From Clostridia bacterium (lineage in GTDB: Bacteria > Bacillota > Clostridia > Christensenellales > CAG-917): a stretch of DNA of 64,000 bases. The stretch is from contig JAFZVB010000014.1 of the NCBI GenBank assembly GCA_017618055.1, positions 263,663-327,662 on the forward strand, read 5' to 3'. The notes beneath the pieces are model-generated. The model did not search any database and was not told where the DNA came from. It saw only the letters and a program-made list of their open reading frames with translations. This document shows, in pieces, positions 5,899 through 36,370 of this stretch (positions are counted from its first letter, which is position 1; the number at the start of each line of letters is the position of its first letter). The translations under genes were made by a program, and so were the position numbers.

Positions 5899-7407
5899 TT
5901 ATTGTTTAGACCAATAATCTCTTTCTTCGTTTCCTGTTAATTTACAGTCTAATTCATGGTATGTGAAGATTTCATGATACTCTTGTTCAGCACCCATCTC
6001 TCCAATACTTCCAATGGTATCGTTATATGCATTAGCAACATACCAGTCTTCAACCATATCCCATATCTTGAAATAACCATTATCCCAAAGTTCAAATGTG
6101 ATTTCAATCTTAGTGAAGTTTGCCAAGTTCGTGCCAGCGGCCTGTGAATCTCTCAATGCCCAGCATGTATCTGCGGATGTATAGTTGTTATCTGTTTCTG
6201 AGTTTACACTACAATCTAATTCAATCTTTACAGTATAGTAACCATCATTTGCGCCAGATTCACTCTCTTCTGTATATTTAACTTCTGCACTCTTTATGTT
6301 ATTATAAACACTCATAGATGCGTCTTTGCTGAAGAATATGTGTTGGTCTGTCTTTTCATATGAGATTTCTCTTCCCATACTATATCCAGGAACTATAGCA
6401 CCCTCTTCCCTGAAGTCTACACAATCTTTATATACTGGGATTAATGTGTTTCCAACATCTCCAAAGATATCTGCATAGTTCAATCCACCAACAGTAATGT
6501 TTGCAAGTGGTGCGAAGTCTTTAAGATATCTATATTCCATTTCAAATACACCATATTTCTTTCCAAGTAATGATGCATCTCCATTTAATACTGCAGCTGA
6601 AGTATATGGAATTGGATTCTCACTTCTAGTTTGTCTTTCCTTTAATTCTTTGTTATCAAATTTGTTATTCCAGTCATAAACGGCATCAAAATTTTTAGAT
6701 TTTACTTTTTCAAAGTTTACCAAAGGTTCTGTATCATACCCTGCCTTATAGTATCTTCTTTCAGCATTTACAACGCCACCAACTCCTGCAAATAACTGAA
6801 TTAATAGACCTGCGTCTTCATCATCTGACATTTCTCTTAAAGATTGATATTTAAGTCTATATGCCTCACCAGTTACGTTATTTCTAATATCTGTTAATTG
6901 GAATAATAATGGAAGAATTTGTCCCATAGTACTTGCATCTGAAGCACCCTCAGAATAATATCCACTTTGTGGAGATACCATCATTCCTATATTACCTATT
7001 TGGTATAAATTATATGCAAGTTCTTTGATGTCATCTTCTGCAGTTATTGTATTTGGATTTATCATAATCTTTCTTACAGCACTAGAATAATCAAATGATT
7101 GTGTCTCTGGATTATACACTGCACCTGGTTTTTGGTTTGCACCAATAAATCCATGTTCCATATTTGCAGGCCTAAATACTAATGGTGCAAATACTAATGA
7201 AAGAATTGCAAAGAAACAAATTAAAATACCAAGAGCAGATTTTCTCCATTCATATATATAATCTGAATTTGGAGCATACTCAGTTCCTGGTATAATAGTA
7301 TTATCTTTTTTGTCTACTAACTTAGCTGCTTTTTTCTTGTCTGAATCATATGAAGTCAAATATCTAGCTTCATTTATTTTCAAATCTTTTTTGTCTTCCA
7401 TACTCAT
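5899..7407 (-). CDS. Hypothetical protein with one N-terminal TM anchor and a large extracytoplasmic domain
   Basis: 502-aa ORF. A ~55-aa cytoplasmic N-terminus is followed by a TM helix (LGILICFFAILSLVFAPLVF). No recognisable catalytic motif. Divergent from the metallophosphoesterase gene. Confidence 0.5.
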   Translation of the reverse strand: MSMEDKKDLKINEARYLTSYDSDKKKAAKLVDKKDNTIIPGTEYAPNSDYIYEWRKSALGILICFFAILSLVFAPLVFRPANMEHGFIGANQKPGAVYNPETQSFDYSSAVRKIMINPNTITAEDDIKELAYNLYQIGNIGMMVSPQSGYYSEGASDASTMGQILPLLFQLTDIRNNVTGEAYRLKYQSLREMSDDEDAGLLIQLFAGVGGVVNAERRYYKAGYDTEPLVNFEKVKSKNFDAVYDWNNKFDNKELKERQTRSENPIPYTSAAVLNGDASLLGKKYGVFEMEYRYLKDFAPLANITVGGLNYADIFGDVGNTLIPVYKDCVDFREEGAIVPGYSMGREISYEKTDQHIFFSKDASMSVYNNIKSAEVKYTEESESGANDGYYTVKIELDCSVNSETDNNYTSADTCWALRDSQAAGTNLANFTKIEITFELWDNGYFKIWDMVEDWYVANAYNDTIGSIGEMGAEQEYHEIFTYHELDCKLTGNEERDYWSKQ

Positions 7408-7555
7408 AATTTATACCTCTAAACAATTTTACTCTTTTTTTTATTTTTTTACAAGATTTATGTTTTTTAAACATATTTTAAAAATTGTACATTGAATAAT
7501 TATTTTCAAAAAAATATAATTATTGTGTATTAATATAATAAAAGGGAGAATAATT

Positions 7556-10500
7556 ATGAAACTTAGTTTTAAAAGCGTAACTTTTATTTTGATTATTGCT
7601 TTGCTTTTAGCTTTTTGCGTTAGTTTCGGAATAATAATGTCTAATGGTGTTGCATTTGCAGACGATACTGAGACAAAACTATCTACAGTAACAATTGGAC
7701 ATTTTAGTGATCTTCACTATTTCCCATACCAACGTGGCTATACACCAGCAGACTATGGTACTGACACTGCAAAATACTATGACAGTGAGTTCTATTTCTC
7801 TATCACTGGTGATACAAAGCTTGTAGAAGAATCCGCGGCTGTTTTTGATGCAACTTGCGAAGAAATGTATCTAGCTGCTCTAGATGGTGAACTTCCACAA
7901 GTATTTGTTGCATCTGGAGACCTTTCTAAGAATGGTGAAAAAGATGCTTTAGCAGATCTCGCTAATAGACTTCGTTTAATACAAAACGATATTAGACAAA
8001 TACCTGGATATGAAAACTTCCAAATTGTTTGTGTACCTGGAAACCATGACTTATTCAATGGAAGTGGTGCATACTACACAAAGGACAATGGCAAATCATA
8101 TAAGAGTACTGCTCTTCAAGGTTCTGAATGGGCATTATTATTCAGTGGTCTTGGATATCCAGATAATACAATGGAACAATTAACAACAGTATTACCAGAA
8201 AACTATTGGTCTACAGACTATGGTGCCTCCACAGATACTGCTGCACAAAGAGCAATTACTGCTGGATTTACTAAGGCAGGAATATCTACATACTATAGAA
8301 ATTCTATAGCATATAAAACAACTCCATTCTATGGACAATATGTTCAATCTAATAATGCTAATGTTTATGACATTCATTATTACAATGCAGACCTTGAATA
8401 TATTAGTGAAAACAATACAACAATGACTGCAGAACAAAGAAGAGCAAGATATGCTAAATTAGAAGCAAATGAAGACGATTTAAAACTCAATGCTCTCTCT
8501 TTCTATTTGACAGACTCAACAAATTATAGTTATGTTCTATTTGGAATAGATGCTTCTTTCCGTACAGCTGCAAAGAAAAAGGCATATACACCTTATATTG
8601 CATCTGATCCTACACCAGTTTCTGGAAACACATATTACAAGTTTGAATATGGCAAAGGCTTTACAGAATTAACACTTGCACAAGCACAAGCAATAGTTGC
8701 AGATGGTGGCGAAGTTTATGTTGATTCTGGTCTCAACCATGAAACAGGTGGAAAGATTTCTTTAGACTGCATAGATTGGATGGAATCTGTAATGAATAGT
8801 TTACCAGCAGCTGCTGATACAGGTGATGAATTCACAGGAATGATTACAGTTCACCAAAACTTACTTGAACACTGGGATAAAGAAGGTGAAATTCTTAAAG
8901 ACTTCACTCTCTACTATTATGAATACCTTGTAAAGAGATTCCTTCATATGGGAATTCGTTATTCCTTTACTGGTCATATGCATGCTAATGACGTTGCATA
9001 TTACACAAATGCAGAAGGAGAAACATTCTATGACTTAGAAACAGGTTCTATGATTAGTTACTACGGACCAAAGCACTACATCTCAATTGAAAGATATAAG
9101 ACAAACGTATCTGGAAAAGATGGCTTTGCAGAAAAGTTCATTCTAAAGAATGATATCCTTGAAACATTTGCTTATGACTTAAACGGTAATGGTGTTATAG
9201 ATGATGATGAAAAAGAAATTAATTATAATGACTATTCCAACAAGATTATTTACTTACAATTAATAGATAGAGTTGTTGGCCACTTCATTTCAGACAAGAT
9301 GGTTGACGACTTATTAGGTTCAGTTAGAGACTTATTTGGACCAGATGGCCCTCTTGCAGGAAATTCAATTATTGGTTCATATGCAGAATTACTTGGTAAA
9401 GTTGCAATGTCTTTAATTAAACAAATAAGATATGATTTAGACTACACATTTGATGGCGTTAAATATGACAACTTAGTAGATTATTTATACGCTGTTGTAG
9501 ATAAAGTAGTTTCAGTTGAATTTGGTAGCGAATCTGTTGGCAAGATGTCACTCAAACAAATTGCTGGATTTATTGCACAAGCACATGCAGCTGGTCTAGA
9601 AATTACAACTGCAGTATATAATGGAACAGGAACAGACTATGCATTCTCTACATCTTCACCAGAATACGTAGTAAATAGTCCTACAGATCCAGTATATCGT
9701 GCAAGATTTATTTCAGCAGTTCAAGACTTTAGTTCTAAATGCTTAGATGGTTCATTTGTTGAATTCTTAGTAATGTCATTACTAAAACCTCTCTACATTG
9801 ATGATAATGGTTTACTTAAACAAGTACTTAACCATACATATAATCTTACAAAAGACGAAAATGGCAACGACCTTTCAGAAGCAGAAAAATCTCAACTTAA
9901 TGATTTACTTGCACTAGTACAAGATATCGTTATTGGAGATGATGAAGATATCCAAATTGAAATTAATGTTGAAAAGTTTGGACCAATTGGTATTATCAAT
10001 GGATTACTTCCAACAATATTATCATTACTTGATCAATATCTTGGATTTGCTCTTTCTGGAACAGACCTCTACTCTATCGTAGATACATTCTTAGATTCAT
10101 ATCTTGTAGAGAGTTTCTATGTAGGTATTGGTGGTATTGCAGATGCTATCTTAAAAGGATTTGCAACTGACGATATGCCAGACTACGGTGATCCAACAGA
10201 TTCTAGCGTTCCAAAGATGCTTGTTACAAATAACAATCGTAACGGAGGCAAATATACATATATTTCCACTATCCGTGATTTAGAACCATCATCTCAAGTA
10301 AACGGAATGCTTCCATCTATTATTAATGGACACTTTGAAGACGATAACACTTACACCATTACATACTATACAAACGAAGAAATCTTCACTTCCTTTGCTC
10401 TATATAGTGAAGATGGAACATTAATTGAAAAAGTTGAAGAAAATGAAAACTTCTTTAACCCTACATTTATGTCTCCAAATTCAGATCAATTATTAGCTAT

Positions 10501-12109
10501 GACATGCAATGGAACAAATGTAAGCATTTCTACAGTTGCAACACCTATTTACTATCCATTAATAGACTTAGGTCTTGTATGTATAACACATACACCAGTC
10601 TTCAAGGAAGTAAATAAAGAAGAAGTTCCTATTACATATTTAGATAGAGAAATGTACTACGAAACAAATGGTGCTGAATACTGGAATAAACATACTGTTA
10701 CTATTTCAGGATTACAAGCTGGAACAACATATAAGTTCAACATTTGGGGAACATATCAACCAAAGTCTGGCCCAACTGATTTAATCTCATTCCAATATAG
10801 AGATAGTAATGATTTACTTAAATTCACTACCCCAGATTCTACTGCTACAGAATTCACATTCTTAGCAATAGCGGATATCCAAGGTATGACACCTTATATG
10901 TATGCAGAAACAGATAAGAAATTAAATGCTATCACTGACGATTTAGCAGTTAAAGGATATGACTTCGTACTTAATGCTGGTGACGTAACAGATAACTCAA
11001 AGAACTTCGTACAAATGCAATATGCATTTGATCTCACATCAGACTTCTTCTCTAACACAGCAATGTTCGTAACATCTGGTAACCATGAGAACGGAAGTTA
11101 TATGATGAATAGATTCTTTGATTACACTCTTCCAAATGTAATAACATACCCACAAACAGGTGAAACAGGATTGTACTATTCATTTAGATATGGCAATTCA
11201 TTCTTCCTTGTTTTAGATACAAATGATGCAACAAGTAGTGGTGGTCTTGGAGAAAAACAACTTGCATGGCTCACAGCTGAATTACAAGCTGCAAACAACA
11301 ATACTGCAATTAAGCACATATTCGTCTTAATGCACAAGTCTATGTTCTCTTGTGGTTCACATACAAAGGATCCAGAAATCTTAAAGATGAAAGAACAACT
11401 CGTTCCTCTCTTTGCAAATAACAATGTAGATATAGTATTTAGTGGTCATGATCACACATACTCTATTACAAACAAGATAGACAAAGACGGCAAGGTTACA
11501 ACAGGCAATGGTGTTATGTATATAACTCTTGGAACAATGGGAACAAAGTTCTATGAATACAAAGAAAGCGAAGATACAACCCCACTTCTCAATGCAAGTG
11601 AATCTATCTTCCATACATTAGATACACAAACATTTGCATATGTAACAGTTTCTGGAGATTCTGTAACCATTAACGGATACACATTCGCTGAAGATTCTCA
11701 TGGAGATTTGGTAGTTGTTCAAATCAAAGACCAACTTGAAACAGAAATCAAAACAAATGTAGCTATTGAAAATGGCTCATTAGGGAAAACAATCTATGCA
11801 GGATTCACATCACACAAAGCAATTGATGAATACAAGATAAGCGTACCACTTGGTTATAAAGTTGCATACTATGCAAATGGACAAGTATATTCATCCCTTA
11901 ATGATGTAAAAGTCAACGGTGCTAAGACTACTGTTGTAGTTAAAGCAGTTAACACAAAGACAGACGAAGAAATTGAGATAGATACAATAACACTTGAAAT
12001 CAAGAACTATTCTGCACTACTTGCAGTATGTATTGTAATACCAATCATAGTTGTTGGTGCAGCTGCTTGTGCTGTTGCTATTATATTTATCAAAAAGAAG
12101 AAAGCATAA
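7556..12109 (+). CDS. Large (1,517 aa) secreted, C-terminally anchored protein with two calcineurin-like metallophosphoesterase domains
   Basis: Start moved to ATG 7556, behind AAGGGAGA; the track's TTG start at 7523 lacks an RBS. Signal peptide MKLSFKSVTFILIIALLLAF...AFA. Domain 1 motifs: GHFSDLHY, SGDLSKNG, VPGNHD, GHMHAND. Domain 2 motifs: LAIADIQG, NAGDVTDN, SGNHE, VLMHKS, SGHDHTY; this domain is preceded by an FN3-like segment (ISGLQAGTTYKFNIWG), as in purple-acid-phosphatase-like enzymes. C-terminal TM helix plus KKKKA. Confidence 0.75.
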   Translation: MKLSFKSVTFILIIALLLAFCVSFGIIMSNGVAFADDTETKLSTVTIGHFSDLHYFPYQRGYTPADYGTDTAKYYDSEFYFSITGDTKLVEESAAVFDATCEEMYLAALDGELPQVFVASGDLSKNGEKDALADLANRLRLIQNDIRQIPGYENFQIVCVPGNHDLFNGSGAYYTKDNGKSYKSTALQGSEWALLFSGLGYPDNTMEQLTTVLPENYWSTDYGASTDTAAQRAITAGFTKAGISTYYRNSIAYKTTPFYGQYVQSNNANVYDIHYYNADLEYISENNTTMTAEQRRARYAKLEANEDDLKLNALSFYLTDSTNYSYVLFGIDASFRTAAKKKAYTPYIASDPTPVSGNTYYKFEYGKGFTELTLAQAQAIVADGGEVYVDSGLNHETGGKISLDCIDWMESVMNSLPAAADTGDEFTGMITVHQNLLEHWDKEGEILKDFTLYYYEYLVKRFLHMGIRYSFTGHMHANDVAYYTNAEGETFYDLETGSMISYYGPKHYISIERYKTNVSGKDGFAEKFILKNDILETFAYDLNGNGVIDDDEKEINYNDYSNKIIYLQLIDRVVGHFISDKMVDDLLGSVRDLFGPDGPLAGNSIIGSYAELLGKVAMSLIKQIRYDLDYTFDGVKYDNLVDYLYAVVDKVVSVEFGSESVGKMSLKQIAGFIAQAHAAGLEITTAVYNGTGTDYAFSTSSPEYVVNSPTDPVYRARFISAVQDFSSKCLDGSFVEFLVMSLLKPLYIDDNGLLKQVLNHTYNLTKDENGNDLSEAEKSQLNDLLALVQDIVIGDDEDIQIEINVEKFGPIGIINGLLPTILSLLDQYLGFALSGTDLYSIVDTFLDSYLVESFYVGIGGIADAILKGFATDDMPDYGDPTDSSVPKMLVTNNNRNGGKYTYISTIRDLEPSSQVNGMLPSIINGHFEDDNTYTITYYTNEEIFTSFALYSEDGTLIEKVEENENFFNPTFMSPNSDQLLAMTCNGTNVSISTVATPIYYPLIDLGLVCITHTPVFKEVNKEEVPITYLDREMYYETNGAEYWNKHTVTISGLQAGTTYKFNIWGTYQPKSGPTDLISFQYRDSNDLLKFTTPDSTATEFTFLAIADIQGMTPYMYAETDKKLNAITDDLAVKGYDFVLNAGDVTDNSKNFVQMQYAFDLTSDFFSNTAMFVTSGNHENGSYMMNRFFDYTLPNVITYPQTGETGLYYSFRYGNSFFLVLDTNDATSSGGLGEKQLAWLTAELQAANNNTAIKHIFVLMHKSMFSCGSHTKDPEILKMKEQLVPLFANNNVDIVFSGHDHTYSITNKIDKDGKVTTGNGVMYITLGTMGTKFYEYKESEDTTPLLNASESIFHTLDTQTFAYVTVSGDSVTINGYTFAEDSHGDLVVVQIKDQLETEIKTNVAIENGSLGKTIYAGFTSHKAIDEYKISVPLGYKVAYYANGQVYSSLNDVKVNGAKTTVVVKAVNTKTDEEIEIDTITLEIKNYSALLAVCIVIPIIVVGAAACAVAIIFIKKKKA

Positions 12110-12119
12110 TATGATTTAA

Positions 12120-14429
12120 ATGGACAACAAAGACGAAAAAAAGGTTCAGAATTTATCTTTAAGCGAACAAATCGTAAAGTATAGATACTTTATACTTATT
12201 GTTTTTGTTGTCCTAATTGTCCTTGCTGGAGTATTCCTCCCCAACATGATTAAAAAGGTAAACTATGATATTTCATCATATTTGCCTGAGGATTATAAAA
12301 CCACACAAGGATTTAAATTTTTATCTGATAACTTCAACATTTACGGAGATATTGAACTAGGTATTCACTCTACTGATGAGACAAAAGTAAAGAATGCTGT
12401 AGATAGAATTAAGAACGATGTTGAAGGTGTAACAATGTGTGCCTGGCAAGGAGACTTTGATGGACTAGATGGTGTTGTTCCTCCAGAAAAGGTTGACGAA
12501 TTAAAAGCAATCTTTAAGGATGGCAACGACTATCTAGTTTTAATTTCTCTAAAATATGGTTCATCTTCTAAAGAAGCCGTAGATAGATATGCGGATATTG
12601 TTGCAATTGTTGATCAAGAAGTAGGAGAAAATAGTTATGTTGCAACAGGTATGACATCGCAAGGTGCAGACCTATTCACTAACACTTTAGGTGAATTTTG
12701 GAAATATGCATTAATTGCCGTTGCATTTGTTATTGTAATTTTAGTTTTAACTACAAATTCAGTATCAGAGCCTTTGGTTTTAATATTGACAATTTTATTG
12801 TCCATATTAATCAACCTTGGAACGAATGCTATATTTAAATCCACTTCTATTGTTACATTCGCAATAACTGCGGTCTTGCAACTTGGTCTTACTATGGACT
12901 ATGCAATATTCTTGTTACATCAATATCGTGAAGAACTTAAAACAGAACTAGATCCAAAGAAAGCATTAACTAATGCCCTTCCAAAATCTGCAAAGGCAAT
13001 ATTTGCATCCGCCGCGACAACAGTTTGTGGACTCCTTGCACTTCTTGTCATGAAGTTCAGAATAGGACCAGATATTGGTATTTCTGTTGCTAAAGGTATT
13101 GTTCTTTCATTCTTAACAGTTATTTTCTTACAGCCATGTTTAATGTTGATGTTTGAAAAAGTTAGGGTTAAGACAACACACAAGTGTTTAGATTTCCATT
13201 ACAAGACACCAGTTAAACATTCTATTAAAGGAAAGAACATAATAGCATTAATCTTTATTCCTGTATTTATAGTTGCTTTACTTATTAATGTGGACTCAAT
13301 GCCTTGGTCTTTAAAATACACTTATGTCCACTTCACTAAAGACAAAGTTGTATCTGACGAACTTAAGAATGCACAAAGAATGTCTCTTGAGATGAACAAC
13401 CAAGTAATGGTTGCACTTCCTCTATATGAATGCGAGTATGATGAAGATGGTGAGATTTCAGATGTTATTTTATATTATGATGAACAATATGAATTCCTAG
13501 AAAAAATAAATGGCATGATAGACCGTGGAGATGTTAAATTCTCTCTAGGTTTATTCTCTATTTTAGATAAAGATACAGAAATTGAGTATGAGGGGTACAA
13601 TTTTGCTCTTAAGGATATTCTTAAATTAGTTATCCAATATCCAGACATTGTTCCAGAAGAGTATAAATCTATGTTTAACAGCTATATATCCAACGGATAT
13701 TCTATCTACACTGTTGCTATTGCAACAAAATATGATATAGAAAGCCAAGAGGCATTTGATTTATTAGATGAAATTGATGGATATGCTACAGAGGTATTAG
13801 GAGAATATGGCACAATTTATATGACAGGTTGTTTGCAAGGTGCTTATGACTTTGCAAAGGTAACTCCAACAGATAATATGTGGGTTTCTATTATTTCTGC
13901 AATAGCTATTTTTATAATCCTTCTCTTCACCCTACGTTCCTTTAAGTTCTCTGTTGCGCTTGTTGCTCTTATTGAATTAGGCATATGGATTAACTTGATA
14001 CTACAGTGGGTATTCTATGCAGGAACCATTAACTTTATGGTATATATTATAATTAGTGCGGTACAACTTGGTAGTACTGTAGACTATGCAATTTTAATTG
14101 CAACGAGATATAGAGAGCTGAGAAAGAGATTTGAACCACGTCAGGCTGCGTATATTGCCACTACAAAGTCTTCAATGGCAATCACGACATCTGCATTGAT
14201 TTTAGGCTCAGCGTGCTTCAGTGTGTCTTTAGTAACCTCTAACTTAATTGTTCAACAATTATGTGCACTTATTGCTCGTGGTGCAATCATTGCTGCCGTA
14301 ATAGTTATCTTTGTACTCCCTGCACTCCTGGTTGCAATAGACAGACCAAGAGGAAATGAGATTCACTTTGAAAGAACTCCAAATCTTAGAAAGTTTAAGT
14401 TTAAAAAGAAAAAGAAAGAAATTAATTAG
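12120..14429 (+). CDS. MMPL/RND-superfamily membrane transporter
   Basis: 769 aa. Two repeated blocks, each with about 5-6 TM helices after an extracytoplasmic loop (the duplicated MMPL/SSD-like architecture). Starts 10 nt after the metallophosphoesterase stop. Confidence 0.7.
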   Translation: MDNKDEKKVQNLSLSEQIVKYRYFILIVFVVLIVLAGVFLPNMIKKVNYDISSYLPEDYKTTQGFKFLSDNFNIYGDIELGIHSTDETKVKNAVDRIKNDVEGVTMCAWQGDFDGLDGVVPPEKVDELKAIFKDGNDYLVLISLKYGSSSKEAVDRYADIVAIVDQEVGENSYVATGMTSQGADLFTNTLGEFWKYALIAVAFVIVILVLTTNSVSEPLVLILTILLSILINLGTNAIFKSTSIVTFAITAVLQLGLTMDYAIFLLHQYREELKTELDPKKALTNALPKSAKAIFASAATTVCGLLALLVMKFRIGPDIGISVAKGIVLSFLTVIFLQPCLMLMFEKVRVKTTHKCLDFHYKTPVKHSIKGKNIIALIFIPVFIVALLINVDSMPWSLKYTYVHFTKDKVVSDELKNAQRMSLEMNNQVMVALPLYECEYDEDGEISDVILYYDEQYEFLEKINGMIDRGDVKFSLGLFSILDKDTEIEYEGYNFALKDILKLVIQYPDIVPEEYKSMFNSYISNGYSIYTVAIATKYDIESQEAFDLLDEIDGYATEVLGEYGTIYMTGCLQGAYDFAKVTPTDNMWVSIISAIAIFIILLFTLRSFKFSVALVALIELGIWINLILQWVFYAGTINFMVYIIISAVQLGSTVDYAILIATRYRELRKRFEPRQAAYIATTKSSMAITTSALILGSACFSVSLVTSNLIVQQLCALIARGAIIAAVIVIFVLPALLVAIDRPRGNEIHFERTPNLRKFKFKKKKKEIN

Positions 14430-26156: not shown

Positions 26157-27255
26157 TATTTCCTAAAAGAACTACAAATGGTGATGTAGATGTATCTTTA
26201 GATACATAACTTCTTGTATATCCACGAGAATGCTCATCATTTTTCTCTAATGAATTTACTATTATCTCGCTATCACTGTTGTATTCATCTTGTTTTATCT
26301 CACCCAAAAGAGCAATGAAATCCTCTTCCTTAATTGGCTTAATCTTTTCTCCGTTCTTGTTACGTACACTTGTATAATATCTCTCGTTTTTACATCCTGG
26401 ATATGTAACAAAATATTTTGCAAGAATTGGTAATTCCACTAGCCTGCAATTGAATTTAATCATTGCTTTTTGTAGATTTCTAACAAAGTTAGGATCTCCA
26501 TATCTTAGCTTGTCATTAAAGATTACATTCTTGTTTGTGAGTATATTCTTAATTGGCTCCTTGCAGTCTTTTAAAGACTCATCCATTGTGTCATAAAGAA
26601 TATCCATTTGCTTATGAGATCTTGGTATTTCTAATCTTCCATCTAAAAGAGATTTTTGGTATGTGATTCTAGTCCTATCCTCTTTGTTAATTCCTGGAAT
26701 AATTTCATACTTATCTAGTAACCCTTGAAGAGTTAGACTTTCTTCTTCCAACATCTTTTTGAGAATTAACATTGTTGCATATGAATCTTCATCTGATCTA
26801 TGTGCCGTATACTCTATTTCATAATTTGCAGCAACCTCTTCAAGCTTTTTTAGGTTCTTATTTCCAGAGATAATTTTGTACATCATGGCAACATCTATAA
26901 AACTAAACTTTATTCTATTTAGAGAATAAAAATCACAGTTTTCATTGATATATTTTACATCATTATCTACTGCATAACCTATAACTAAATCTGCATCATC
27001 AAAGAGAGATTTTATTTTGTCATAATGCTCTGGAAATTTGCCTGCTTTTCTAAATTCACTTTCTTCATACGCAAGATGAATTCTTGGCTTCTTTCCGTAT
27101 AAAAGCGCAAATGTTTTAGGTGCAGGATTAACTAAAATGTCTTCCTTTTTTAATACATTAAAATTCTCATCTGTTAAGCAATAACCAAATGAGCATAAAG
27201 AACCATCTGTGTAGTTCCCTGAGCAACTTTCTATATCATAGAATAAATACTTCAC
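26137..27255 (-). CDS. DEDDh 3'-5' exonuclease (DnaQ-like) with a ~190-aa C-terminal extension (possibly BRCT-like)
   Basis: Exo I FYDIES, Exo II GYAVDNDVKYI, Exo III HRSDEDSYAT. The GTG start overlaps the upstream TAG by 1 nt. The C-terminal segment KNVIFNDKLRYGDP...LVELPILAKYFVTYPG is loosely BRCT-like. Confidence 0.7.
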   Translation of the reverse strand: MKYLFYDIESCSGNYTDGSLCSFGYCLTDENFNVLKKEDILVNPAPKTFALLYGKKPRIHLAYEESEFRKAGKFPEHYDKIKSLFDDADLVIGYAVDNDVKYINENCDFYSLNRIKFSFIDVAMMYKIISGNKNLKKLEEVAANYEIEYTAHRSDEDSYATMLILKKMLEEESLTLQGLLDKYEIIPGINKEDRTRITYQKSLLDGRLEIPRSHKQMDILYDTMDESLKDCKEPIKNILTNKNVIFNDKLRYGDPNFVRNLQKAMIKFNCRLVELPILAKYFVTYPGCKNERYYTSVRNKNGEKIKPIKEEDFIALLGEIKQDEYNSDSEIIVNSLEKNDEHSRGYTRSYVSKDTSTSPFVVLLGNTKKGKK

Positions 27256-27740
27256 TATTTCTCTTCCTGTATAAGTTCTCTTAAAATCTTAACACCTTCA
27301 GCTGTGTAATCTTCGGGTTTAATATATCCAATATTATCCATCATTCTTTTTGCTGCTTGCATGATGTCAATTGAATTGTAGATTTCATAGCAGTTTACAA
27401 TCTCTTTTGCTGGGAAAAGTCTATAGACTTGTTTGCTAGAAAGATTGTATAAGAATGCGATGGTTCTATACATATAACCAACCCAATACATTACCTCTGG
27501 ATCATATTTTTGGCTACCGTATTCACTTTCACCATATTCTTTGTCTAAAACTTCAAATACATAGTCTGGATTGTTAGATTGGAATAGATAGGATTTGTTA
27601 TCTAAACTTCCAACAAAATTAGAAAGCATAAATCTTCTAATAAATACCAATGAACTATATGATGCTTTTTTTACAGACATCTCAAAGAGTTCTGCTTGTA
27701 TGATACATAATTCTGATTCACTATAATCTAATGTTCTCAT
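27255..27740 (-). CDS. Hypothetical 161-aa protein, middle gene of the DUF3990 operon (possibly DUF3791-related)
   Basis: 4-nt overlap with the upstream gene and 1-nt overlap with the downstream gene. Predicted all-helical. Weak resemblance to the DUF3791 partners that usually accompany DUF3990. Not verified. Confidence 0.35.
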   Translation of the reverse strand: MRTLDYSESELCIIQAELFEMSVKKASYSSLVFIRRFMLSNFVGSLDNKSYLFQSNNPDYVFEVLDKEYGESEYGSQKYDPEVMYWVGYMYRTIAFLYNLSSKQVYRLFPAKEIVNCYEIYNSIDIMQAAKRMMDNIGYIKPEDYTAEGVKILRELIQEEK

Positions 27741-28588
27741 TTTAGTAACTGGCCAATAATAAGACCTTTCCCCTTATATTCTATTCTTGCAAATTTAACT
27801 TGATTTAATCCTACGTTGTTAAGTTCAATACCATCATTGATGTATTTGCTCTTTTCTTCTTTACATATGTAAAGATCACTAATTAATTCTAGATTTTTTA
27901 ATGCTTTCTCATTTCTGAAAACATATTGATATTTCAAACCACAAGCTTTCAAAGCATTAATACATTGCAAGTCTGTACTAATACCAGAAATGAACTCGTT
28001 TATAATTAAAGAAGATCTATTGTCACAAATAGGTGCAAATATAACATCTGCATCCTCTATTTCAGCAATAACTTTCTTAACAAAAGAATTATTTGAATAT
28101 TCTCCAAGCCATCCACGATAATATGCAACAGCAATCATCCACTTAACATCTATGTCCAAACTAAGAACTTTTAAATCTTTTTCATTAAATGAAAATGCAT
28201 ATATGGATTCCATATGTTTGTTAGCAATATTTAATACTGCTTGTCCAAAACTATCTGTTGTATAGAATCCAGTGCCAAAATCACTATTTGGATTGTACTT
28301 ATCTAGCTTAATTGGCATCTCAAAATCTACATCTGAGCCATGGAATATTAATGTCTTGTTTTTATTGATAAGTTGTTCGTTAAAAAGTTGAACATAAATG
28401 TCATTGAAATATACTCCATTTTTGAATGCAAAATTGTACATTTTTTCAATGCTTTCGTTGTCTGCTCTCATCTTTCCATTTTCCCATTTGTTAATGGATT
28501 CATAGGTTACATTAAGAGCCATTGCTAAGTCTGTTTGTGTGATGTTTAACAAACGTCTAATAATCTTAATTTCGTTTGAAATACTCAT
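27737..28588 (-). CDS. XRE-type HTH fused to a DUF3990-like domain (ART-like H-Y-[ED] motifs)
   Basis: The N-terminal LNITQTDLAMALNVTYESINKWENG is a classic XRE HTH. The C-terminal part has LIFHGSDVDF, DFGTGFYTTDSFGQA and FAPICDNRS. These match my memory of DUF3990 and parallel the PARP-type HGS / GxGxYFA motifs. Confidence 0.55.
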   Translation of the reverse strand: MSISNEIKIIRRLLNITQTDLAMALNVTYESINKWENGKMRADNESIEKMYNFAFKNGVYFNDIYVQLFNEQLINKNKTLIFHGSDVDFEMPIKLDKYNPNSDFGTGFYTTDSFGQAVLNIANKHMESIYAFSFNEKDLKVLSLDIDVKWMIAVAYYRGWLGEYSNNSFVKKVIAEIEDADVIFAPICDNRSSLIINEFISGISTDLQCINALKACGLKYQYVFRNEKALKNLELISDLYICKEEKSKYINDGIELNNVGLNQVKFARIEYKGKGLIIGQLLK

Positions 28589-29670: not shown

Positions 29671-30213
29671 TTAAAATTTATATAGTTTATATTGTCCATT
29701 TTTAGTGGATATAGCGAAGAAATCTCCATTTTCTGGGAAACCATTCATAATTCCTTCAATACATCCAGTTGTACATTTATGCCCTCCAAGAATAATATTT
29801 ATATCTTTTCCAGCATATTTCCCTACTATTTCATCCAAGAATGATTTAATCCTTTTTCTAAAGTCATCTGGATTTTCTACACCTTTATATTCTGTTCTTA
29901 CAGGCAATAGTCCAAACTCAAAGTGTAAGTTCTCATCTATTACCATATTGTCTGCATCTCCCATATCACAAGGTTGAAGTCTTTCATCTAAGATTATCTT
30001 GTCTTTATCTATCCCAGAAACAATACTAACTGTTTGTATTGCTCTTTCTTGTGGAGATGAATAAGCCACATCAAACCTTACATCTTTTAGTTTTTCATGA
30101 AGATCTTGCGCTTGCTTAATGCCAGTTTCGTTTAGAGGCAATCCTTTTCGTCCTTGAAGTCTATGCTCCAAGTTTAAATCAGTTTGTCCGTGTCTAACTA
30201 CATATAAGTTCAT
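29671..30213 (-). CDS. Histidine phosphatase family protein (phosphoglycerate-mutase-like)
   Basis: N-terminal LYVVRHGQTDLN (RHG motif) and a later GGH. Confidence 0.8.
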   Translation of the reverse strand: MNLYVVRHGQTDLNLEHRLQGRKGLPLNETGIKQAQDLHEKLKDVRFDVAYSSPQERAIQTVSIVSGIDKDKIILDERLQPCDMGDADNMVIDENLHFEFGLLPVRTEYKGVENPDDFRKRIKSFLDEIVGKYAGKDINIILGGHKCTTGCIEGIMNGFPENGDFFAISTKNGQYKLYKF

Positions 30214-31394
30214 TATGGCTCCATCATCCCAGCTACGAGACCTTTATTTTTATCTATAATAATCTTGTTTATTCTTTCATTGAATGAACCCGTATTAGAG
30301 TTCACAAAGTCTACACTAAAGATTGGCATTGTATCTAACCAGAAATCTAGATTCTCATTTTCTATTAAAGATACATTGTATTTTTCTGCAAGATGTAATA
30401 GTGAGCAACCAAATAAGGAAGAAATGAAATCATCAAATCCTTTTGCGCCTAAAGCGTGTTGTGTTTGGTTGATTCTTAACATATTCTTTGCATTTGCATC
30501 TGCCTTTATAGACTCTGCAGTTTCTTGTATACCTTTAATTAGTGCTTTGTTAGAGTTTCTATTGTGCCAATCGTTCCTTGCATTTGTATCTAAATCAAAG
30601 AACTTATATGTATATTCATTTACAGAACCTTCGTCTTTATCTGTCATATGTTTATAATCTCTAGTATCTATAAGCACTAATCCAGACTTTGTTCCTGTTT
30701 GGGTTATATCGTTGTACCTTAAATCAGATATTTTTGTCTTTCCGTTTCCTTCGTTAAAAACATCTACATCTGAATAGTATACATAGTCATATATGTTTTT
30801 CTCGTTGTATGTTATAGTTTCAAGCCATTCATGGAACTGAGCCATATCATATCCATTAAAACCACAAGGATGGAAGTTAAGAATAACTATCTCACCAGTT
30901 TGTTCGCTTAGATACTTTAAAATGTCTACAATGTACCCAGCCATCTTGCCAGAAGTAATGGAATGTGTTGAATACCAATCTCCATCTGTAAAGCTATATT
31001 TTATATGCAAATATCTAGATCCTTGCATAAGCTGGTCATAAGCACCAACAGTTTGAGTTTTCGCATATCTAATGAAGTATCCTTTGCCTAAAACCTCCAT
31101 CATCTTCATTCCGAAACCCGCATTTTCATCTGCTTTAGACTTAGAATTGATATCGCAAGTACATGAATCATGAGAGCCAAGCATATAGATATCTTTTAAA
31201 TATGGATTTGCAACTGTAATATTGTCTATATTGGACAATACTTTGCCGTAATTATGGTCTAGATTGCCATTATCCTTTATAGATAGATTTGAAAGATTTA
31301 ATTCAAAAATAAAAAAGATAGCAAATACTAGAAAAATACAAATAAGAACAATAGCAACTATCCTTTTAGTATCTTTCTTTTCTGCCTTTCCCAT
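30213..31394 (-). CDS. Membrane-anchored PI-PLC X-domain-like phosphodiesterase
   Basis: Start probably MGKAEKKDTKR (ATG 31394, GGGGGA upstream); the track ORF extends to 31448. One TM helix, then YMLGSHDS...YAKTQTVGAYDQLMQGSRYLHIKY, which matches the PI-PLC X-box pattern (G.HDS...TQ...QL..G.RY.D.R). Confidence 0.55.
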   Translation of the reverse strand: MGKAEKKDTKRIVAIVLICIFLVFAIFFIFELNLSNLSIKDNGNLDHNYGKVLSNIDNITVANPYLKDIYMLGSHDSCTCDINSKSKADENAGFGMKMMEVLGKGYFIRYAKTQTVGAYDQLMQGSRYLHIKYSFTDGDWYSTHSITSGKMAGYIVDILKYLSEQTGEIVILNFHPCGFNGYDMAQFHEWLETITYNEKNIYDYVYYSDVDVFNEGNGKTKISDLRYNDITQTGTKSGLVLIDTRDYKHMTDKDEGSVNEYTYKFFDLDTNARNDWHNRNSNKALIKGIQETAESIKADANAKNMLRINQTQHALGAKGFDDFISSLFGCSLLHLAEKYNVSLIENENLDFWLDTMPIFSVDFVNSNTGSFNERINKIIIDKNKGLVAGMMEP

Positions 31395-31494
31395 TGCAAA
31401 AAAAATCCCCCAATAATCTAACAATTTCAATATTAGCATATTGAACAATCATATACAATGTACAAAATTAGACAAGTGTTCAAAAAATTAAAAA

Positions 31495-32169
31495 TTATAG
31501 TTTAAAATTATATCCACAGTTCTTACAATAATATGAATTCTTTTTATGATATATAGGCTTTTCACACATAGGGCACTTGCCATTTTCTAGAGTATATTTC
31601 TTCATGGTTTCTTGTTCTTCTTTAACCATTTTATATAATCTAATATTTTCAACGTGTTCATCTCTAGAAACATCCACAATATTGTCTTTTATAATCTTTG
31701 CAATCTGGTCTATTTCATTTGTGTCATATGTGTGTTCAAAAGCATAGGTTTCTAAAAAATCTTTTAAATCATTTAGATTAATTACATTTTCATCTTCTAT
31801 ATATGGAGCATTATTTTTAGCAAATACAACAACAGAAGTTATATCTACTTTTTGTTTTAGGATTTTTTTGAGATTTTTAACATGAGATTTGTTTTGGGAA
31901 ACAGGGCTTTTAATTCTAACATCTTTTCCTTTTACTCTTTTAGACCATGCTTTTGTTTTAGGATCGTAATGAATTGTTTCATAGAAGTTTTTTGTCTCTA
32001 TAACAATAACCCCATGAGAGTTAACTAATATATGGTCTACTTGGTGGGTCATCTCGGATTTTTCGTTTTTAATAGTAACGTCATTAAATAAATGATGATA
32101 TTCTTGAATACCACTTAGAATATTCTTAACTTTTAATTCACCTTGTTCACCACGACTAACTTTAGACAT
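31495..32169 (-). CDS. NERD-domain (nuclease-related) protein with a C-terminal zinc ribbon
   Basis: GEQGELKV...HQVDHILVNSHGVIVIETKN is the NERD core. The C-terminus has CPMC...CKNC. Confidence 0.65.
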   Translation of the reverse strand: MSKVSRGEQGELKVKNILSGIQEYHHLFNDVTIKNEKSEMTHQVDHILVNSHGVIVIETKNFYETIHYDPKTKAWSKRVKGKDVRIKSPVSQNKSHVKNLKKILKQKVDITSVVVFAKNNAPYIEDENVINLNDLKDFLETYAFEHTYDTNEIDQIAKIIKDNIVDVSRDEHVENIRLYKMVKEEQETMKKYTLENGKCPMCEKPIYHKKNSYYCKNCGYNFKL

Positions 32170-33654: not shown

Positions 33655-34449
33655 CTAGAATGGTACTGTTAACTCTGGGCACGCTCCAAATACTTTGTTA
33701 AATACAGATGCAGCTGTTGAACTCGTTAAAGTAGTTGAAGTTGATGTAGATGTATCTCTATATTTTAATATTGCACTTCCTCTAGTAACTGTATCTAATT
33801 TCAAACATCCCAAGAAAGCATTATCTTCTAACCAAACTTCTATTTGTCCTTCACAAGTTACTGATTCCAATGTTGCACAATTAGAGAAACAACCAATTCC
33901 AAGTTCTACAACTCTTGTATCTGTTGGAGTTGCCGCACTAATTACAACTTGTCTTAAGTTTGGAAGGTTTGCAAATGTGCTTGGTTCTACTCTTGTAATG
34001 TATGGAGAGATAACTACTTTTGTTGGAACTTCATTATATGAATCCATATTAAAGATTGTATTGTTTATTCTTCTTAATGGTGCATATCCTGGAGTACCAC
34101 TAATTTTGTAATTAACATTGTCTGGGAATATTACATCTCCTAATAATGTGGAAGAATTATCTAATCCTGTGCATACAAAGTATGCAGGAGAAGAAGTTAA
34201 TGTGCCACCATCATGGAAATTAGAAGCTATTAAGACATCCGAACTACTATATGCAGAATATACAAAGTACTTAGCATATGCATTCCAATTATATGTTGTA
34301 CCAGATGGAGCAACCGCTGTATCTCCACCACCTTCATCTGACCAGTATGATGCTGTAAGCCCTACAGATAATCCTACTGTTAAAGCAACCAAGGCTACAG
34401 ACACTAAAATTATAAACCATTTTGTTTTAAATACATTTACTTTTGCCAT
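33655..34449 (-). CDS. Secreted protein: TasA/SipW-class signal peptide fused to BspA-type leucine-rich repeats
   Basis: GAGGTG RBS. The N-terminus MAKVNVFKTKWFIILVSVALVALTVGLSVGLTASYWSDEGG is a basic stretch plus TM helix ending in A-S-Y-W-S-D. The C-terminal half has LRR_5-like units (FANLPNLRQVVIS, IGCFSNCATLESVTC, DNAFLGCLKLDTV). Confidence 0.55.
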   Translation of the reverse strand: MAKVNVFKTKWFIILVSVALVALTVGLSVGLTASYWSDEGGGDTAVAPSGTTYNWNAYAKYFVYSAYSSSDVLIASNFHDGGTLTSSPAYFVCTGLDNSSTLLGDVIFPDNVNYKISGTPGYAPLRRINNTIFNMDSYNEVPTKVVISPYITRVEPSTFANLPNLRQVVISAATPTDTRVVELGIGCFSNCATLESVTCEGQIEVWLEDNAFLGCLKLDTVTRGSAILKYRDTSTSTSTTLTSSTAASVFNKVFGACPELTVPF

Positions 34450-34464
34450 ATCTTCACCTCATGC

Positions 34465-35433
34465 TTATGTTCTACGTACTGAATTAATTTCAAAGTTGAA
34501 GAAAATCTCTTGATTAATCAACTCTGGAGATGTTTCCTCATCTATCTTTGCAAAGTTTACTATAAAGCAGAACCTTGCTTGTGTGAATGGAACAACCAAC
34601 ATATATAATGTGTAGTCATCTGTTTGTGTATATGTCCAGTCATGCCAAGTTGCCTGTGCATAATATGGAGAATCTGTTTCTGGGAATGAAGAAATAGTTG
34701 GTTGTGGGTTACATTGTGTATAAACAAATGGCCCATCTCCACTCTTTGTATAATATGTCCAATTACTATTATAATCTTCTCTATTTACTTGCATATATTG
34801 AGATAATGACATATCAAAGTCAAATTCAGACTTATAGTCATCTAATGCAAGTTCATATCTTACCCAATCACCAGTATCATTTTGTGTATACTCATAGTTA
34901 CCTGCTGTTCCACTTCTTGTATATCTAATAGCTGCTTTTGGATTATGTGTATTATCATCTGCAGAATAACCATTCCTTGTTCTCCATTCTGGAATAGTTA
35001 TATATGTTCTTGGGTTTTGAAGTGTTACAGATGTAAGCACAATCTCAATAGCCTTTTTACCATCTACACCATCTGAAGTACCAGAATAAATGAAATTGAA
35101 TTCCATTCCAGCTCTTGTTGCTATACTTGTTAATTGTGTTCCAACCAATGAACTATCTAATACATCTAACGAATCTAAATTCCCAGACCCATCTTGATGT
35201 GTCATAACATATTCTGGTGTTGCAACTGCAGGTACAAGTTTTCCAATTGCTTCTGCATATTCAGATGCTGAGTCCATTGTCATAGAAGCATTACCAGTTG
35301 GAGCATAAGATGTAATTATGATATCATCGCTCTTTTTCATAACATCACCAAACCATGCTGCTGTTACACCAACAACACCAACGACAATACAAAGTCCCAT
35401 AATTATTAAGCTAAGGATAATTGATTTTCTCAT
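34465..35433 (-). CDS. TasA/camelysin-like secreted protein candidate (SipW-class signal peptide)
   Basis: Start set to ATG 35433, behind GGAGGTG; the track ORF begins 7 codons earlier. The N-terminus MRKSIILSLIIMGLCIVVGVVGVTAAWFGDVMK carries the signal motif. The C-terminal strand EIFFNFEINSV resembles the TasA-family terminal F-x-F-x strand. Confidence 0.5.
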   Translation of the reverse strand: MRKSIILSLIIMGLCIVVGVVGVTAAWFGDVMKKSDDIIITSYAPTGNASMTMDSASEYAEAIGKLVPAVATPEYVMTHQDGSGNLDSLDVLDSSLVGTQLTSIATRAGMEFNFIYSGTSDGVDGKKAIEIVLTSVTLQNPRTYITIPEWRTRNGYSADDNTHNPKAAIRYTRSGTAGNYEYTQNDTGDWVRYELALDDYKSEFDFDMSLSQYMQVNREDYNSNWTYYTKSGDGPFVYTQCNPQPTISSFPETDSPYYAQATWHDWTYTQTDDYTLYMLVVPFTQARFCFIVNFAKIDEETSPELINQEIFFNFEINSVRRT

Positions 35434-35437
35434 ACCA

Positions 35438-36370
35438 TTACACCTCCGCCACACTTAATACAGTTACAGTTACATCAAAACTGAATGTTGCGCCAATATA
35501 TGATGAATCCGAATAAGTTACACCATTTAATGCTGGATAGGATGATAAGTGATTAATTTTATTCAATTCATCTGCTGAATAAATTTCATCCATATTTAAC
35601 ACCCAATCTCTCTTTGTTTTACCAGATTGAAGATTATTTCCATATTGATACCAGTATGCTTTTTCTGGACAGAATACCAAGTATAGATATGCGCTAGAAT
35701 GATCTGCTACATAACCTTGTATAGGTAATGCTTGAGGTGTTGTTGTCCATTTTGTTGCAACTTCTCCATTAGCTAATGGCAATTTGTTGTTTGTATCTGT
35801 AATAGCATTATATGTCTTTGTTCCACGATATGGTGTATAAATATCGTTTCCATCTTTTATATACCAAGTAAATCCATACTTGATTAAATCCTTATCTGTG
35901 AGCATCATTAATGTTATTGGAGGATCACCATTTTCTTGATCCAAGGTAATATGAACAGCACTAATCTCAACCATAAATTCAACTGCTTTATTTTCAGTAT
36001 CTATATTGAATTGTGCACCAACTTCATATGGTTTATCAAGCATATATGAATCATAATTAATACTACCAGAAGGATAGCCAAGGATATTTGTTGCGAACTC
36101 ACTTGTAACTACATGATTATTCCCTTGTGCATTTCTATATCCGTATTGACCAGTATACTGAGGATATCCTCCTTCTGGTTCATTTCCGAAACTGAATGAC
36201 AAAACAAAACAAGTTGTTGTAGAAAGTTCTATTGTAGCAACTCCTGTTTGAGTAGAATTAGTAAACCATGCATATGAAACTCCGACCATTGTTATACATC
36301 CCACCATAACGACAATAGCGGTGACTATGCGTATAATAAATTTAATATCTTTTCTTTTTTTCTTAGTCAT
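35438..36370 (-). CDS. TasA/camelysin-like secreted protein candidate (SipW-class signal peptide)
   Basis: The ATG is 8 nt after a GGAGG that lies inside the giant gene's 3' end. N-terminus MTKKKRKDIKFIIRIVTAIVVMVGCITMVGVSYAWFTNSTQ. C-terminal strand GATFSFDVTVTV. Confidence 0.5.
   Translation of the reverse strand: MTKKKRKDIKFIIRIVTAIVVMVGCITMVGVSYAWFTNSTQTGVATIELSTTTCFVLSFSFGNEPEGGYPQYTGQYGYRNAQGNNHVVTSEFATNILGYPSGSINYDSYMLDKPYEVGAQFNIDTENKAVEFMVEISAVHITLDQENGDPPITLMMLTDKDLIKYGFTWYIKDGNDIYTPYRGTKTYNAITDTNNKLPLANGEVATKWTTTPQALPIQGYVADHSSAYLYLVFCPEKAYWYQYGNNLQSGKTKRDWVLNMDEIYSADELNKINHLSSYPALNGVTYSDSSYIGATFSFDVTVTVLSVAEV

Follow-up and report, generated by a model that had tools for sequence, protein, structure and literature searches.

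A giant gene followed by three small genes

The window considered here is a stretch of 64,000 nucleotides (nt) from a Clostridia bacterium of the Christensenellales (GenBank assembly GCA_017618055.1, contig JAFZVB010000014.1, positions 263,663 to 327,662 of the forward strand). On its minus strand lie three adjacent genes, designated pA, pB and pC, whose putatively exported products carry a common motif at the end of an N-terminal hydrophobic segment. An earlier note on this DNA, made from the letters alone, had singled out these three proteins as carriers of a TasA-type N-terminal signal. The trio stands, with all three open reading frames (ORFs) on the minus strand where the note had placed them; what it had missed is the context, since the trio lies at the tail end of an operon whose first gene encodes a protein of 7,187 amino acids (aa). 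The features in question are as follows, the bar in a motif marking the putative cleavage site.

36375-57938, minus strand: giant protein gene, a 21.6-kb ORF encoding 7,187 aa, which heads the operon
35438-36370, minus strand: pA, 310 aa, beta-rich, putatively exported, of an unnamed family
36263-36283, minus strand: pA motif G30-V-S-Y-A|W-F36, a putative cleavage cassette that closes the hydrophobic segment
34465-35433, minus strand: pB, 322 aa counted from ATG, predicted beta-sandwich, putatively exported, of a second unnamed family
35350-35370, minus strand: pB motif G22-V-T-A-A|W-F28, at the end of the hydrophobic segment
33655-34449, minus strand: pC, 264 aa, putatively exported, with the shared signal and a short leucine-rich repeat (LRR) domain
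34342-34362, minus strand: pC motif G30-L-T-A-S|Y-W36, at the end of the hydrophobic segment
33715-34023, minus strand: LRR_5 (BspA-type) region of pC, residues 143-245, PF13306
32263-33651, minus strand: ClC-type chloride channel gene (Voltage_CLC match, E 8.6e-61)

The intergenic gaps in this series are short (4 nt between the giant gene and pA, 4 nt between pA and pB, 15 nt between pB and pC, and 3 nt between pC and the ClC gene), no terminator-like site is found between any of these genes, and the first strong promoter-like site of the minus strand appears only before the NERD-domain gene that follows the ClC gene. The genes from the giant one to ClC are therefore considered to form one operon. 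For pB, the ATG start is favoured over a GTG upstream at 35454, because the orthologues likewise open with MKKS. The ClC gene occupies the same position after pC in closer relatives (L001, L005 and L007 among the loci compared) and is not present in distant modules; it is co-oriented with the trio, and probably co-transcribed with it in this lineage only.

The series giant-pA-pB-pC is a conserved module that has no name, and this is a more important finding than the signal of the trio alone. A word-indexed search returned 10 close clusters of pA homologues, 19 clusters of pB homologues and 4 of pC homologues, and an exhaustive HMMER profile search gave 74 clusters for pA, nearly all of them 280-380 aa in length; none of the homologues returned for the three proteins is named by any source. 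The gene order is kept in every related contig that is long enough (about 40 loci), with varying flanking genes. A complete protein of 5.2-6.5k aa is encoded before pA in L001, L002, L003, L005 and L007, and in nearly all further loci a multi-thousand-residue ORF before pA runs off the end of the locus. The metagenome-assembled genomes that bear the module come from rumen, sheep, deer, mouse and human gut, under the labels Christensenellales, Christensenella sp. or uncultured Clostridia; the complete genome CP091723.1 (Christensenella sp. nC33, locus L056) has the module too. In literature searches, no account of the giant-pA-pB-pC module was met with. Some assemblies (L012, L015, L031-L033, L035, L036, L039, L043 and L046) are labelled Bacteroidaceae, Bacteroides, Phascolarctobacterium or Anaeroplasmataceae, and their module genes match those of Christensenellales/Clostridia; these assemblies are probably mislabelled or mis-binned.

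The shared N-terminal motif

Each of pA, pB and pC has exactly one hydrophobic segment, closed by the motif G-x-[ST]-x-[AS]|x-[FW], and the strings that the earlier note had aligned at this point are exact (MVGVSYA|WFTNSTQ in pA, VVGVTAA|WFGDVMK in pB and SVGLTAS|YWSDEGG in pC). In the common register, Gly stands at -5, Ser/Thr at -3, Ala/Ser at -1 and Phe/Trp at +2. When the motif is written as a loose regular expression, five matches are obtained in the 23,136 aa of window ORFs, three of them being those in pA, pB and pC. Over about 40 modules the motif is found in all three genes of essentially every module, as G-[VAIM]-S-[FY]-A-W-F-[ST]-[DN..] in pA, [GS]-[VI]-T-A-A-W-F-[GST]-[DN] in pB, and G-[VLM]-[ST]-x-[AS]-x-W in pC, where the orthologues read GLTYSLW, GVTVAYW, GLTSAYW, GVTLSRW, GMTLAIW and GVSYAVW. 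The sharing of this motif by the three proteins is beyond chance. Across pA orthologues with as little as 42% identity, G30, S32, Y33, A34, W35 and F36 are invariant, and the top-residue frequencies among 57 pA relatives are 0.77 (G), 0.89 (S), 0.81 (F/Y), 0.98 (A), 1.00 (W) and 0.95 (F); the 19 pB relatives, with as little as 25% identity, are invariant at G22, A25, A26, W27 and F28. The proteins themselves are assigned to three unrelated families on the basis of hhalign for pA versus pB and of the LRR-based architecture that sets pC apart. The earlier impression that pA and pB are no obvious paralogues agrees with the hhalign result, in which just 27 N-terminal columns of the two are aligned (E 3.5e-5).

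Conservation is highest in this very region. In the 57 pA relatives (at most 50% mutual identity), the best-conserved 25-residue stretch comprises residues 13-37, which are the hydrophobic segment and the motif, with a mean top-residue frequency of 0.63 versus 0.38 in the mature part. The corresponding stretch is also the best-conserved one of pB (0.74 versus 0.46). Since the hydrophobic segment and motif are the most conserved part of both proteins, they do not behave as a generic signal peptide, and a signal that surpasses the mature domains in conservation points to sorting or assembly by a dedicated step. It is very unlikely that these are ordinary Sec signals cut by the housekeeping signal peptidase I, with an A-x-A-like site that is inherited in the lineage and has no special meaning. 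Such signals would satisfy the -3/-1 rule, as those of the trio do, and would go with the lack of a match of the window proteins to the model of the SipW-dependent signal and with the lack of a dedicated peptidase gene nearby; archaeal ABP subunits are also thought to use a generic peptidase (PMC9245690). However, the motif is common to three families in about 40 genomes with homology detected only in the signal, and a signal region more conserved than the mature domains is the opposite of what generic signal peptides show. In addition, W/F at +1/+2 is invariant, whereas an aromatic P2' residue is absent from 143 verified LepB substrates (PMC10269814). The aromatic P2' is one of the reasons why TasA cannot be cleaved by P-type signal peptidase and needs SipW, which is of the endoplasmic reticulum (ER) type (PMC10269814). 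F or W at +2 is retained by all three families.

Within the segment, conserved positions recur every 3-4 residues (G14, P18, V21, T25, M28 and S32 in pA; L14, V18, V21/G22 and A25/A26 in pB) and, because of this spacing, line one face of a helix. The conservation pattern fits two readings, namely a segment that is read by a dedicated enzyme, like SipW- or prepilin-type signals, or one that is retained in the membrane and packed against partners. A type IV/Tad prepilin-type signal was rejected as a candidate, since neither G|F-T-L-x-E nor G|xxxxE[FY] is present and the charged N-region precedes the putative cut instead of following it.

TIGR04088, the NCBIfam model of the SipW-dependent-type signal (curated cutoff 19 bits), recognizes the N-termini of TasA (41.6 bits) and CalY (53.6 bits) as positive controls. 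The N-termini of seven pA relatives all match this model, with 13.3, 15.5, 16.7, 17.3, 17.7, 18.1 and 23.3 bits; for six of them it ranks first among the models and for the seventh second, and one of the seven lies above the cutoff (E 5.3e-5). A score of 18.0 bits was also obtained in the scan that included the controls. Among 35 module N-termini, TIGR04088 is the top-ranking family, with five matching. The pA family would thus be a borderline case at the edge of TIGR04088, and pB and pC appear to share the motif but too little else to score. The claim of a TasA-type signal is partly borne out: the architecture of the signal is like that of TasA, the model score is borderline and this for the pA family only, and the window trio has no reportable TIGR04088 match.

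Mature domains of the trio

TasA was represented in the hhalign comparison by a single PDB-verified sequence (100% identical to PDB 8AUR, whose chain begins at A28), because profile-building from genome loci returned only close Bacillus relatives. The TasA sequence GGTWA|AFND and the CalY sequence GGTFA|YFSD have the same register as the motif of pA, pB and pC. In SipW-dependent signals, a Gly-rich turn at about -5, Thr/Ser at -3, Ala at -1 and an aromatic P2' are often followed by S/N-D. Exactly this register was aligned with TasA by hhalign, with E 0.32 for the pA profile and E 0.0025 for the pB profile (onto GGTWAAF), and nothing of full-length TasA was aligned beyond the signal. Neither pA nor pB matches any Pfam or NCBIfam family, as full proteins or as N-terminal fragments. 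PF12389, NF046066, TIGR04089 and TIGR04090 are absent from the window trio, from the 57 pA relatives and from the list of 25 families that the 35 module N-termini gave, and PF12389 is absent also from the two pB and four pC orthologues scanned. When PDB sequences were searched with the pA and pB profiles, nothing was returned. A weak Pfam match to DUF7349 (E 4e-4) was seen in a single member of the set of 57.

Structure prediction by AlphaFold2 (AF2) gave for pB (19 sequences) a beta-rich model of about 15 strands, in which residues 19-64 are unplaced (predicted local distance difference test score, pLDDT, 65.5; predicted TM-score, pTM, 0.61), and for pA (10 sequences) a poor model (pLDDT 54.6). 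With these models, Foldseek found no match in the PDB below E 1e-3, and TasA was outside the top 50, but the models are too weak for this to exclude the jelly-roll fold of TasA (PDB 5OF1/8AUR); the matches of the pA model are weak and generic, to beta-sandwich, jelly-roll and carbohydrate-binding module (CBM) folds. The top matches of the pB model, to the two-domain MSCRAMM adhesins ClfB/SdrG, are weak (probability at most 0.2, TM-scores near 0.1) and were not relied on. The conserved segments that follow the motif were not placed by AF2 (residues 37-62 of pA and 29-57 of pB, pLDDT about 30) and contain strand-like stretches, I44-x-T-I-x-L-S-T...F55-x-L-x-F59 in pA and D36-x-V-x-V-S-S..P45..A49 in pB. 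As modelled, these post-signal segments would be compatible with strands needing a partner.

The earlier note pointed towards a reading by homology, in which pA and/or pB would be highly diverged TasA/camelysin jelly-rolls that form a donor-strand fibre, with the LRR protein pC as its tip or adaptor. Besides the signal register common with TasA, this reading draws on the distant pA orthologues, which have WFNDAEQTTIATLDLS where TasA has AFND...ASGTLDLS, on the alternating-aromatic strands at the C-termini of pA and pB (TFSFDVTVTV and FFNFEI) compared with QFSFEAT of TasA, and on the weak generic jelly-roll/CBM matches of the pA model. The C-terminal strings quoted in the note, GATFSFDVTVTV and EIFFNFEINSV, are exact. 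The kinship of TasA with archaeal AbpA was itself seen only by the most sensitive methods (PMC9245690). The resemblances in WFNDAEQTTIATLDLS and in the C-terminal strands are suggestive only. What speaks against a TasA-like mature domain are the missing matches to PF12389, NF046066, TIGR04089 and TIGR04090, the hhalign alignments that stop at the signal, the empty profile searches against PDB sequences, and the rank of TasA outside the top 50 Foldseek matches of both (weak) models; moreover, pA and pB exceed TasA in length by about 100 residues and are mutually unrelated. As judged by sequence, none of pA, pB and pC is demonstrable as a TasA relative, and the homology reading is quite unlikely.

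The LRR_5 assignment of pC in the earlier note was correct. PF13306 matches residues 143-245 with 29.7 bits, above its gathering threshold of 27.7 bits, and is found in all four close pC homologues; of the distant orthologues, three match with 31.2, 22.2 and 18.6 bits and a fourth has no match. Between the signal and the LRRs lies a conserved W-S-D-x-x-G-G-D-x-x-V-A-P / D-W-N-x-Y-x-K-Y segment. The combination of LRRs with the signal of the trio is real, being kept in the close pC homologues and in most of the distant orthologues examined.

The trio and the giant protein

The 7,187-aa protein has its sole hydrophobic segment at the N-terminus (residues 18-46) and is rich in T (12.4%), G (11.3%), S (10.8%), N (8.3%) and Y (7.6%). 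It contains 55 GG-hydrophobic-G motifs, grouped in residues 400-4800 and 6400-7187, and has neither an LPXTG motif nor a C-terminal anchor; the last ~1,000 residues or so are conserved. A Pfam scan in two halves gave no significant family (only NQRA_N, 18.1 bits against a cutoff of 25), and PDB sequence relatives were found neither for the first 1,500 nor for the last 1,300 residues.

The explanation preferred here, with a probability of roughly 0.45, is that a specialised SipW-class sorting and cleavage cassette is shared by pA, pB and pC as three accessory subunits of a giant surface protein. The trio would be the accessory tail of a giant surface protein operon in Christensenellales-type gut Clostridia, and the giant protein, pA, pB, pC and a further protein of about 400 aa that many genomes encode (described below) would all be exported via a single N-terminal hydrophobic segment. 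The members of the trio, though of three unrelated families, would have in common a cassette of SipW-dependent (TasA/CalY-type) architecture. We infer that all three are cut by a signal peptidase tolerating an aromatic P2', probably of the ER/archaeal type and encoded elsewhere in the genome, and that the cleavage would expose the conserved N-terminal beta-strand segments of pA and pB. By strand complementation, the trio might then assemble mutually and/or with the giant protein at the cell surface, a link to the function of the giant protein being presumed, and pC would add a small LRR binding module. This cleavage cassette is favoured because the pattern at -5/-3/-1/+2 is a peptidase rule and not a packing rule, and because the pA relatives are recognized by the SipW-signal model.

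Several results weigh against this explanation. No reportable TIGR04088 match was obtained for pA, pB and pC of the window, either with the full proteins or with the 50-59-aa N-termini at E<=10, and of the 57 pA relatives only one registers with TIGR04088 when scanned at full length. Bacillus SipW as a tblastn query and a pattern for its catalytic S-x-S-M-x-P box, both of which detect SipW beside tasA in L019, found neither a SipW-like gene nor the S-x-S-M-x-P pattern in the window, L001-L018 and L030-L058 (47 loci, about 0.9 Mb in total). Like membrane anchors, the h-regions of pA, pB and pC are rich in I/V/L and span 20-24 residues, with the conserved residues on one helix face. The unplaced segments of the pA and pB models may simply reflect the shallow alignments of 10 and 19 sequences, and gene order is the only tie of the trio to the giant protein. 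Furthermore, no S24/S26 peptidase is found in Pfam scans of the small ORFs of the window, and no signal peptidase gene within 4.5 kb beyond its left edge.

In the main rival explanation, the segments are uncleaved signal anchors that pack the trio, perhaps together with the N-terminal helix of the giant protein, into a hetero-oligomeric membrane platform. Packing would take place via the conserved helix face, GxxxA/S and interfacial Trp/Phe, the platform would hold the ectodomains including the LRRs at the surface, and the likeness to the TasA signal would be convergent. Helices are classically packed through G-x-x-x-A/S, no part of pA and pB is better conserved than the hydrophobic segment, whose conserved positions are 3-4 residues apart, and the 20-24-residue, I/V/L-rich segments score as membrane helices. 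The failure of the window proteins with TIGR04088 and the lack of a dedicated peptidase gene nearby would also be in line with it, as would an aromatic P2', which disfavours ordinary signal peptidase cleavage (PMC10269814). Packing, however, leaves unexplained why strictly small residues at -3/-1 and Gly at -5, which is the signal-peptidase rule, occur in three unrelated families. As in SipW substrates, conservation also does not stop with the membrane segment but runs on into F/W-S/G-D, and the SipW-signal model is the best family for the pA relatives. Retained anchors are somewhat unlikely as the explanation of the motif.

If the cleavage cassette is taken further, the module might represent a sortase-independent system of surface assembly in gut Christensenellales that has so far gone unrecognised, in which the three unrelated subunits, licensed by their SipW-class signal and cut by an unlinked ER-type peptidase, complement one another by N-terminal strands and so lock into a short heteromeric stalk or foot. 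The stalk would anchor, prime or cap the fibrillar 7,187-aa protein, and its LRR subunit would serve for binding or as an adaptor. This extension is unlikely as it stands; if true, a TasA/TapA-like assembly principle would have been recruited to giant adhesins.

Among known systems, the tapA-sipW-tasA operon of B. subtilis, where TasA builds its fibres by donor-strand exchange, resembles the module in that several different secreted proteins are encoded in one operon with a signal ending in G-x-T-x-A|x-F-x-D, including the aromatic P2', in that the extracellular products are beta-rich, and in that the pA relatives reach up to 23.3 bits on TIGR04088. It differs in that no sipW is found in or near any module examined, the mature domains have no sequence or fold match to TasA/TapA (the fold models being weak), the h-region of the module is I/V/L-rich and not A/G/L-rich, the module is headed by a 7,187-aa protein and has one member with LRRs, and the window proteins stay below the TIGR04088 threshold. 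CalY/camelysin of the B. cereus group, BsaA of C. perfringens (TIGR04090) and the alternate-type signal proteins of TIGR04089 are likewise sets of small secreted proteins of Clostridia and Bacilli with a shared SipW-class signal, and the GGTFA|YFSD of CalY is nearly the pA family consensus G-x-S-F-A|W-F-S-D. Those systems encode sipW beside the substrates. The trio does not match TIGR04089, TIGR04090 or PF12389. The BspA-type surface proteins are comparable to pC and its orthologues in their match to LRR_5. Ig-like or anchoring modules are usual in BspA-like proteins, whereas pC is very short (195-272 aa, few repeats), has no such modules, and carries instead the signal of the trio and the conserved W-S-D..G-G-D..V-A-P..D-W-N..K-Y segment. 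The archaeal AbpA/AbpB pili are a TasA-like system that also has no dedicated peptidase gene in the operon, and roles in the priming of assembly and as carrier of distal adhesive domains have been proposed for its second beta-sandwich subunit (PMC9245690). AbpA is a demonstrable jelly-roll homologue of TasA, unlike pA and pB, and the AbpA/AbpB system has no giant protein or LRR subunit.

The module devotes more than 24 kb to an orphan giant protein and its conserved partners, three or four in number. In the human gut microbiota, Christensenellales belong to the members with the highest heritability and the closest association with health, and to our knowledge almost nothing is known of their cell surface. 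If SipW-like processing is true, the TasA-type logic of export and assembly reaches well beyond the matrix fibres of Bacilli, and the motif, the candidate subunits and the LRR module provide a handle on the display of giant adhesins. If the segments are retained as anchors, the module still represents a platform in the membrane, conserved and new, for the giant surface protein.

A probable fifth member and neighbouring genes

Downstream of the ClC gene, two more genes of the minus strand concern the extent of the module.

31495-32169, minus strand: NERD-domain gene, after the ClC gene and before the probable fifth gene of the module
30213-31448, minus strand: probable fifth module gene, about 400 aa, with a single membrane segment at the N-terminus and the motif LGSHDS

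The product of the latter is 40% identical (E 2e-92) to that of an L003 gene (11570-12784) located directly after pC, and a gene for about 395-416 aa of this kind adjoins pC in L011, L012, L013, L015, L018, L031, L033-L038 and L040. In the window, the ClC and NERD genes intervene between pC and this gene. Since the gene of about 400 aa stands directly after pC in many genomes and its window orthologue is displaced, the module is counted as four to five genes. No Pfam family and no PDB sequence relative was found for the fifth gene product, and a guess from LGSHDS that it is a PI-PLC-like phosphodiesterase was dropped, as it had no support from Pfam or PDB sequences. The NERD gene looks like an insertion into the module; it has its own sigma-70-like promoter match (11/12) at 32214-32185, and the C-terminus of its product resembles a zinc ribbon on reading of the sequence.

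In one lineage, an RVT_1 reverse-transcriptase gene lies immediately downstream of the five-gene module (L003, 13050-14252; L009, 3709-4911). Elsewhere in the window, positions 27255-28588 of the minus strand encode a 283-aa protein with HTH_3 and DUF3990, followed by an overlapping ORF of 161 aa that has no family, a two-gene unit unrelated to the trio. A second pair of large genes is found on the plus strand at 7523-12109 and 12120-14429, encoding 1,528 and 769 aa, and for the 1,528-aa protein a Metallophos domain is given in the annotation precomputed for an overlapping contig.

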